Source of the DNA: a bacterium
Lineage (GTDB): Bacteria; Bdellovibrionota_G; JALEGL01
NCBI GenBank assembly: GCA_022763185.1
Contig: JALEGL010000006.1
Coordinates: forward strand, 175,087 to 239,086
Direction: 5' to 3'
Length of the DNA: 64,000 nucleotides
Shown: piece by piece, positions 20,947 to 21,738 of the stretch
Numbering within the stretch: the stretch's first letter is position 1
Layout of the letters: the number at the start of each line of letters is the position of its first letter
Made by a program: the position numbers and the translations under genes
The notes under the pieces: model-generated
Database searches by the model: none
The model's input: the letters and a program-made list of their open reading frames with translations, nothing else
Told to the model about the DNA's origin: nothing

Positions 20947-21738
20947 ATGTTACATCTGAAAATTCATAAAAAATTTGATGTGGATGGCTTTACTTTAGTT
21001 GAATTGATGATTGTTATTGTTATCGCGGGGCTTTTAGCGTCTATTGCGGCTACCAGCTACTATAAATACATCAAAAACTCAAAGTTGTCTGAAGGCTATT
21101 TGTACCTTAGAAAAATGTACGATGGGGCTGTTACCTACGCAAGTGAACCAGGCTTGTTGTACACGAGTGATAATCAGGTTTATCCAAAAAAACATCTTTT
21201 TGGCACTTTTTACTCCAGAGTACCTGATAATAACAATGATTACTCTTTTATGTGTCCGCCAAAAAACGGTTTAAAAGAAGTGGTCTACTTTGAGTTAAAT
21301 GATCCGTCTCTTCGAGGGCCGTCCGGAAACCGAATTATGAATAACCCTAATCATGGTATTGATATTTTTGGGTTTAGTTTGTCTGAACAAAATGTTGGTT
21401 CAGACACGCTGTATAGCAATACAAAGCCGGGATATTTTGCCTTTGCGAATGTTGGAGATCCAAGTTTGGCAACACTTCTTGCGTCTGAGGGAAAGAACGC
21501 AACATTTGAAACCAGCAACGATATTGAAATTACAAATTCATTATGGGTGTATGCAGATTTAGATGGAGATTTTGATTGTGATAGTGACGGTGAAGAAATA
21601 GGTCAGCTCATCATGGAACCTTCTGAAAGAAGCAACTGGGACACCTTAACGATGATGATGAGAGGAATTTATAAGGACACAGTTTCAGGTGAAATTATGG
21701 GTACGGAAGGTATTTATATTGAAAACAAAGGCGAATAA
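20947..21738 (+). CDS. type IV pilin-like protein (paralog of 463-1230)
   Basis: MLHLKIHKKFDVDG|FTLVELMIVIVIAGLLASIAA class III signal. The C-terminal module ADLDGD...MMRGIYKDTVSGEIMGTEGIYIENKGE is shared with the first copy. Confidence 0.7.
   Translation: MLHLKIHKKFDVDGFTLVELMIVIVIAGLLASIAATSYYKYIKNSKLSEGYLYLRKMYDGAVTYASEPGLLYTSDNQVYPKKHLFGTFYSRVPDNNNDYSFMCPPKNGLKEVVYFELNDPSLRGPSGNRIMNNPNHGIDIFGFSLSEQNVGSDTLYSNTKPGYFAFANVGDPSLATLLASEGKNATFETSNDIEITNSLWVYADLDGDFDCDSDGEEIGQLIMEPSERSNWDTLTMMMRGIYKDTVSGEIMGTEGIYIENKGE

Follow-up and report, generated by a model that had tools for sequence, protein, structure and literature searches.

Two genes in the 64-kb window analysed here, the whole stretch of 64,000 nucleotides from a metagenome-assembled genome (MAG), encode proteins that begin as class III prepilins and continue into an unusually large globular domain. 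The first open reading frame (ORF), ORF A (20947-21738, plus strand, ATG at 20947), encodes 263 residues and matches the NCBI product MCI5072017.1 (P0001). The second, ORF B (463-1230, minus strand), encodes 255 residues and is MCI5071996.1. Both products lie on one 430,837-bp MAG contig, and a regular-expression scan of the window found no other ORF with a prepilin signal. Judged by this signal, a [G/A]↓F-x-x-x-E motif with a hydrophobic helix of some 20 residues behind it, both proteins are members of the type IV pilin superfamily, and the modelled fold described below agrees. The parts of the two genes are as follows.

20947..21738, plus strand: ORF A prepilin, 263 aa, mature 249 aa; a large type IV pilin without the family Cys pair and without Pro22
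20947..20988, plus strand: class III leader peptide of ORF A, MLHLKIHKKFDVDG, 14 aa; cleavage before F15 predicted from the motif
20989..21144, plus strand: α1 helix of ORF A, residues 15-66; hydrophobic α1-N, E5 (E19), mature position 22 Thr and not Pro
21556..21570, plus strand: DLDGD loop of ORF A, D204-D208, followed by the acidic segment FDCDSDGEE; candidate Ca2+ site, binding inferred only
21661..21672, plus strand: R-G-I-Y motif of ORF A; R239 and Y242 are family-invariant
21724..21735, plus strand: C-terminus of ORF A, N-K-G-E-COOH; N-x-G-E is invariant in the family
463..1230, minus strand: ORF B prepilin, 255 aa, mature 245 aa; canonical G14, P22, Y24 and Y27; Cys pair C77/C128
1201..1230, minus strand: leader peptide of ORF B, MIKKTRLRIG, 10 aa
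622..636, minus strand: DLDGD loop of ORF B, D199-D203
466..477, minus strand: C-terminus of ORF B, N-Q-G-E-COOH; N-x-G-E is invariant in the family

Pilin class and paralogy of the two products

An earlier note on this DNA had reported both genes at these positions, each with a class III prepilin start (G↓FTLxE, the arrow marking the cleavage site), and both observations are confirmed. ORF A and ORF B score 28.4 and 25.0 bits against the Pfam family N_methyl (PF07963; cutoff 21.2) and 28.7 and 22.9 bits against TIGR02532 (cutoff 16.3). The two proteins align over essentially their whole length in BLASTP with 42% identity and 58% positives (E 2e-47), close to the ∼45% identity that had been estimated by eye. 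The conserved blocks KMYDGA, PPKNG, EGKNA, ADLDGD and MRGIYxDTxxGxIMGTEGI...GE are present as described, except that the residue preceding ADLDGD is Tyr or Phe, the Trp lying two positions further upstream.

Comparison with relatives, introduced below, gives a mature N-terminal consensus of FTLVELMIAVAIIGxLAAxAIPxYQKY, with F1, E5, G14, P22, Y24 and Y27, which is near the consensus of type IVa major pilins. The leaders are 9-14 residues long in members with a well-called start, and E5 (E19 of ORF A) is present in all members whose N-terminus is called. The full set of type IVa α1 features, F1, E5, G14, P22 and Y24/Y27 together with a short leader, is found in ORF B and in most members; ORF A has Thr at position 22 and keeps the rest. 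The best NCBIfam match of each N-terminus is the Myxococcus xanthus PilA model (NF041775, Myxococcus-type PilA; 34.4 and 39.9 bits, below the cutoff of 400), and it extends over the first 45-55 residues only. Over the same residues, the top match of ORF A, used as sole query against PDB sequences, is the large major pilin of M. xanthus (8tj2), with other major pilins next.

Several more specific identities were considered and rejected. The earlier note had itself raised a match of the C-terminal domain to GspH/FimT as the finding that would speak against it; the domain has no such match. TIGR01708 gives 27.5 and 20.9 bits against a cutoff of 80 and covers only residues 14-40 and 10-35, and there is no Pfam GspH match. 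GspG is likewise dismissed (TIGR01710, 25.8 and 22.3 bits against 88.85, N-terminal only), the mature proteins being 245-249 aa long with no gsp genes nearby. Other identities, of the GspI/J/K, ComG and PpdD types, match only the N-terminal 20-45 residues, far under the cutoffs.

The genes for ORF A and ORF B have no repeated stretch of at least 40 nt in common at the DNA level, and the G+C content of each equals the window mean (0.376); they are therefore native, old duplicates. A recent duplication or horizontal acquisition is rejected on the same two observations, and on the fact that a 49-nt repeat near ORF A, described below, does not flank it. A neighbour-joining tree has the topology (B,(A,(P0004,P0002))), so that the A/B split precedes the separation of the copies in other genomes. 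This distance tree weakly suggests that the duplication predates the divergence from those relatives, in line with the earlier view of the pair as ancient rather than recent paralogs.

A rare family with a sequence-novel globular domain

To delimit the family, 1.84 billion representatives clustered at 50% identity were searched exhaustively with HMMER (E ≤ 1e-3), using a profile of the C-terminal domain alone from which the pilin N-terminus had been removed. Thirteen proteins were matched, all of 207-275 aa, and a second profile search added P0018, P0019 and P0020. The same prepilin N-terminus is found in all full-length members, and in every member N-x-G-E stands directly before the stop codon. 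When 5.8 billion proteins were searched by word index, only ORF A, ORF B and a single relative, P0002, came back; no relatives were found in a scan of GTDB species representatives, nor in JGI metagenomes scanned with two different pattern sets. All relatives that carry names come from "Oligoflexia bacterium" MAGs. On the evidence of these searches the family is very rare and confined to a small clade of Oligoflexia-like bacteria (Bdellovibrionota).

Within this clade the genes are multiplied, with 3-5 dispersed paralogs per genome. P0020 (MCI5073202.1, locus tag MRY82_09725) belongs to the same accession series as the window proteins but is carried by another contig, of 266 kb, and in all likelihood represents a third paralog of the window's own MAG. 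Five paralogs occur in one Oligoflexia MAG (HMQ10359, 10364, 11001, 11654 and 11692), and a single run, SRR24874944, is the source of five family members. The two paralogs first described are both real, but a further copy most likely exists in the same genome, and a related genome has more.

The C-terminal domain, ∼215 residues long, has no NCBIfam match, no Pfam family in any of the 14 members scanned at E ≤ 10, and no match when its profile is compared with PDB sequences at E ≤ 10. Together with the 13 representatives found in 1.84 billion, this bears out its description as a novel module at the level of sequence. A structural model by AlphaFold2 reached a predicted local distance difference test score (pLDDT) of only 35 with a three-sequence alignment and required the alignment of 14 members, with which the pLDDT is 81 and the predicted template modelling score (pTM) 0.78. 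The model comprises a 50-residue α1 helix followed by about eleven β-strands and two to three short helices. The long α1 helix is packed on an antiparallel β-sheet, which is the hallmark of the pilin fold, here by prediction. Foldseek searches of PDB and BFVD gave nothing significant.

The model thus presents the C-terminal module as an enlarged, sequence-novel pilin globular domain, with no foreign domain fused to the pilin, and about half of this globular domain appears to have no structural counterpart among solved pilins. Since pilin globular domains are commonly lineage-specific, a sequence-novel domain is expected here rather than surprising. We conclude that the proteins form a new, lineage-restricted family of large pilins within a well-known kind of protein, and not a new kind of system.

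Conservation is unevenly distributed along the chain. The mean column conservation of each segment, in ORF A numbering, is given below.

α1, residues 15-47: 0.63
α1, residues 48-66: 0.56
middle, residues 67-141: 0.34
middle, residues 142-195: 0.36
strand and DLDGD loop, residues 196-208: 0.64
acidic segment, residues 209-234: 0.30
last 29 residues, 235-263: 0.62

The family-invariant residues, in the same numbering, are E49, G142, D204, G207, D208, R239, Y242, N260, G262 and E263. In type IVa pilins it is usually the C-terminal D-region that is hypervariable; the pattern in this family is the inverse. The cysteines are also distinctive. A Cys is found at alignment column 177 in 16 of the 17 members, and its usual partner, at column 105, in 13. 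ORF A is the only member that lacks both, and has instead C103 and C211, the latter inside the acidic loop that follows DLDGD. These changes, with that of Pro22, may reflect a rewired disulfide or relaxed constraint, and ORF A is a derived paralog within the family.

The D-x-D-G-D sequence is conserved in 16-17 of the 17 members. The loop corresponds to positions 1-5 of calcium loops of the EF-hand and FG-GAP types, a likeness that is a lead and not a test. An EF-hand-like loop has acidic residues at positions 1, 3 and 5, Gly at position 6 and additional oxygen ligands. Loop position 6 is usually Tyr or Phe and not Gly, position 12 is not conserved, and there is no EF-hand or FG-GAP match in Pfam at E ≤ 10. 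The major pseudopilins of type II secretion systems (T2SS) are pilin-class subunits stabilised by Ca2+, with the Ca2+ site in place of a disulfide (PMC13081927). By analogy it is plausible that DLDGD is a calcium-binding loop. The analogy proposed is with GspG, PulG and OutG, pilin-class proteins that have, close to the C-terminus, a Ca2+ site with the stabilising role of the type IVa disulfide (PMC13081927), and it is one of function. These proteins are much smaller, show no homology to the family past the N-terminus and have a Ca2+ site of different sequence, and the gsp context is absent around the family genes.

The proteins had been called giant and much larger than a major pilin, which overstates their size: major pilins of up to 279 aa have been published, and a class of large pilins, enriched in Myxococcota and Bdellovibrionota, has been described (PMC11046646). 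The mature lengths of 249 and 245 aa fall within that overall range, at its upper end, while exceeding the 170-204 aa reported as typical of large pilins in Bdellovibrionota (PMC11046646). M. xanthus PilA (8tj2), one of the nearest known counterparts, has a mature length of 208 aa, some 40 residues shorter than the family proteins, and has no detectable sequence similarity to them past α1. It contains two disulfides and a CPxC motif, whereas the family has one mid-domain Cys pair, with no Cys at the conserved positions in ORF A. The family is further set apart from M. xanthus PilA by the invariant DLDGD loop, the N-x-G-E terminus, the presence of several paralogs in each genome and, in the window, the absence of a surrounding pil cluster. 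Compared with the type IVa pilins PilA and PilE of Pseudomonas aeruginosa and Neisseria, the globular domain is about twice as large and lacks the C-terminal disulfide-bonded D-region, and the C-terminal segment is among the best conserved parts of the protein instead of the most variable.

Genomic surroundings of the family

ORF A lies between lepA and a Cys-rich secreted ORF without an assigned family, with the pyrimidine biosynthesis genes pyrB, pyrC and carA beyond. ORF B has an EVE-like gene on one side and an ABC-2 transporter on the other, and adjoins an OEP/HlyD/ABC exporter. Most relatives, too, have housekeeping genes on their flanks, and, the paired copies in locus L001 excepted, no member has a further pilin-like ORF less than 10 kb away. 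The observation that the two genes stand away from pilus assembly genes therefore holds in the window, but not for the family as a whole, in which a member from a related organism adjoins pilB. This member, P0005 (locus L003), is transcribed divergently from an ATPase gene across a 262-bp gap. The ATPase exceeds the cutoff of the PilB equivalog TIGR02538 (797.7 bits, 675.65 required) and falls just below the cutoff for GspE (624.6 against 630.25). Divergent pilA and pilB genes are the classic arrangement. Because a family member adjoins pilB, a link to pilus machinery exists even though it is invisible in the window. A PilB with 97% identity to the L003 ATPase is encoded by the Oligoflexia MAG that contains five paralogs.

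Another member, P0013, has a Tad locus at a distance of 2.5 kb. Since the pilins of Tad systems are small Flp proteins, we regard this proximity as coincidental. The Tad-type locus occupies 12479-17955 of L006 (also L007 and L008) and encodes RcpC, a secretin, a 711-aa protein that unites ParA/TadZ-like and T2SSE/TadA domains, and TadB/C; a gene for a RES-domain toxin stands between it and P0013.

The pilA genes of M. xanthus and P. aeruginosa are regulated by sigma-54. In 11 of the 12 family genes, the 250 nt upstream contain no sigma-54 promoter of the form GG-N10-GC (-24/-12). Near the edge of the window, an ORF at 63428-63868 (minus strand) matches only the C-terminal part of sigma-54-dependent activators, the end of the AAA+ domain with a Fis-type helix-turn-helix, and by this match sigma-54 regulation exists in this genome. 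A missing Shine-Dalgarno sequence, or a leaderless mRNA, was dropped as a special feature of the pilin genes, given that a Shine-Dalgarno-like motif is found in the 20 nt before the start of only 19 of the 52 window genes. LepA is at most 64% identical to that of any GTDB species representative, its best matches being spread over several phyla. The organism is poor in Shine-Dalgarno sequences and only distantly related to any sequenced species representative.

The region between lepA and ORF A contains a short repeat. The 3'-terminal 49 nt of lepA, with the stop codon (20603-20651), recur 153 nt downstream at 20756-20804 with 92% identity. The 104-nt segment between the copies can form several hairpins (minimum free energy -34.9 kcal/mol; z against shuffles, -5.5), and a perfect inverted repeat of 12 nt lies within it (20688-20714). 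No Rfam family matches the segment, which does not flank the pilin gene; the whole looks like a small structured insertion or integration scar at the lepA 3' end. Directly downstream of ORF A, 21980-22540 (plus strand) encodes the Cys-rich protein, of 186 aa with a signal peptide, and 22623-23000 (plus strand) a 125-aa protein whose N-terminus contains one hydrophobic segment. No Pfam or NCBIfam model matches either of them, and neither is found beside family members at other loci.

The exporter near ORF B is an operon at 3111-7203 on the minus strand, comprising OEP (3111-4520), HlyD (4517-5581) and ABC exporter (5563-7203) genes. Its 546-aa ABC protein has a clear transmembrane domain; the C-terminal half gives no ABC_tran match (E ≤ 1e-3) and has no recognisable Walker A motif, so the nucleotide-binding domain appears degenerate. 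At L001, in an Oligoflexia MAG, a 1548-aa ORF (3195-7841, plus strand) with several predicted membrane segments and no Pfam match sits between the paralogs P0011 (2055-2867) and P0002 (10001-10834). Ser/Thr kinases with a PEGA domain (∼690-707 aa) occur near two members: one (L089, 7897-9960) is immediately upstream of P0009 on the same strand with a 40-bp gap, and a similar one (L003, 4224-6347) lies 1.3 kb downstream of P0005. A Ser/Thr kinase-like ORF of 512 aa is also present in the window, at 61014-62552, but 40 kb away from ORF A. The proximity of kinase and pilin genes may be a recurrent association or chance.

Probable assembly into type IVa pili

Taken together, these features make it probable that the proteins are type IVa-class pilins of an Oligoflexia-like clade with an unusually large globular domain of ∼215 residues, assembled by a type IVa pilus (T4aP) machine encoded elsewhere in the genome, with the paralogs as alternative fibre subunits. 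The hydrophobic α1-N helix would insert each prepilin into the inner membrane, where a PilD-type prepilin peptidase would cut the short basic leader before Phe1 and methylate this residue. A type IVa machine (PilB/PilC/PilMNOPQ) would then extract and polymerise the subunits, Glu5 and the α1 helices forming the core of the fibre and the large globular domains covering its surface. The conserved C-terminal third, with its strand, the DLDGD loop, R-G-I-Y and N-x-G-E-COOH, would serve as a folding and packing core, its acidic loop perhaps binding Ca2+ and stabilising the C-terminal region as in the T2SS major pseudopilins. The poorly conserved middle, residues 67-195, would be an exposed surface that determines specificity, and the 3-5 diverged paralogs of each genome could supply alternative fibre-forming or fibre-incorporated subunits with different surfaces.

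A number of observations weigh against this assignment. The window contains neither T2SS nor pilus machinery; in it, and within 10 kb of most relatives, genes for a pilus machine, a prepilin peptidase or an operon of minor pilins are absent, and none of the 120 best PilB relatives is labelled "[bacterium]". Several dispersed paralogs per genome are unusual for a single major pilin. Pro22 is absent not only from ORF A, which has Thr, but also from P0012 (Thr) and P0007 (Asn). In about half of the family position -1 is Ala instead of Gly (xxA↓FTLxEL). The canonical C-terminal disulfide D-region is missing, the conserved Cys pair being mid-domain (C77/C128 in ORF B) and absent from ORF A. Pilins without such a D-region are known (PMC11046646), so its absence weakens but does not exclude assignment as type IVa major pilins.

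The Ala at position -1 is seen in L002, L003, L004, L005, L089, P0012 and P0018. Gly is near-universal at this position of the cleavage site in bacterial type IV pilins, and the substitution may bear on the specificity of the cognate peptidase.

A role as minor or accessory pilins is conceivable, if rather unlikely. The proteins would then be low-abundance subunits that prime, tip or decorate a pilus built from a smaller major pilin encoded elsewhere, and their large domains would act as adhesins for prey or surfaces. Glu5, which GspK-type minor pilins lack, is present in every member with a called N-terminus, and the N-terminus as a whole is nearest to those of major pilins. Minor pilins are as a rule grouped in operons, yet the family genes stand singly, apart from the pair in L001, and P0005 occupies the position of pilA beside pilB. 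No GspH/I/J/K or FimT model reaches its cutoff.

The dispersed, apparently monocistronic genes set amid housekeeping genes could also suggest prepilin-peptidase substrates that never enter a filament, the class III signal serving for export or anchoring only and the products being membrane-anchored or released surface proteins. The conserved N-x-G-E-COOH and the acidic loop could equally well have a ligand-binding or enzymatic role in such proteins. We consider this improbable: E5, G14, P22 and Y24/Y27 are conserved, residues that matter for packing in a filament and are not needed for anchoring alone, the predicted fold is that of a pilin, and one member adjoins pilB. Least probable are pseudopilins of type II secretion, suggested by the NCBI name 'type II secretion system protein' on P0013 and P0015 and by the GspG-like placing of a possible Ca2+ site near the C-terminus (PMC13081927), for no more than the first 25-45 residues are matched by the GspG, GspH, GspI and GspJ models (15-28 bits, cutoffs 44-89), gsp genes are near no locus, major pseudopilins have only ∼140 residues, and the ATPase beside P0005 fits PilB rather than GspE.

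Assembly as type IVa pilins can be carried further, to a proposal that we regard as doubtful: that these are previously undescribed, calcium-stabilised, extra-large fibre-forming pilins of predatory-lineage Oligoflexia. The invariant DLDGD and the free N-x-G-E carboxylate would then make up a metal site, or a lock between subunits, in place of the D-region disulfide, and one T4aP machine would exchange the 3-5 dispersed paralogs for one another, so as to give pili of differing specificities for prey or surfaces.

The present value of the finding is a sound improvement in annotation, an uncharacterised pilin family with a defined set of motifs, and not a new biological principle. Its particular points of interest are the extreme rarity of the family, the dispersed paralogs, the inverted conservation, the invariant DLDGD loop and the invariant N-x-G-E-COOH. 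In M. xanthus, large pilins give the pilus tight packing, high stiffness and strength (PMC11046646). The family would extend this class of large pilins to subunits of ∼250 residues in Bdellovibrionota, a phylum neighbouring that of M. xanthus, with a globular domain that is unrelated by sequence, a probable metal site to judge from its sequence motif, and a strictly conserved C-terminus. If the paralogs are interchangeable fibre subunits, they would be a natural model for asking how a single pilus machine can build fibres with different surfaces, which may bear on prey recognition.
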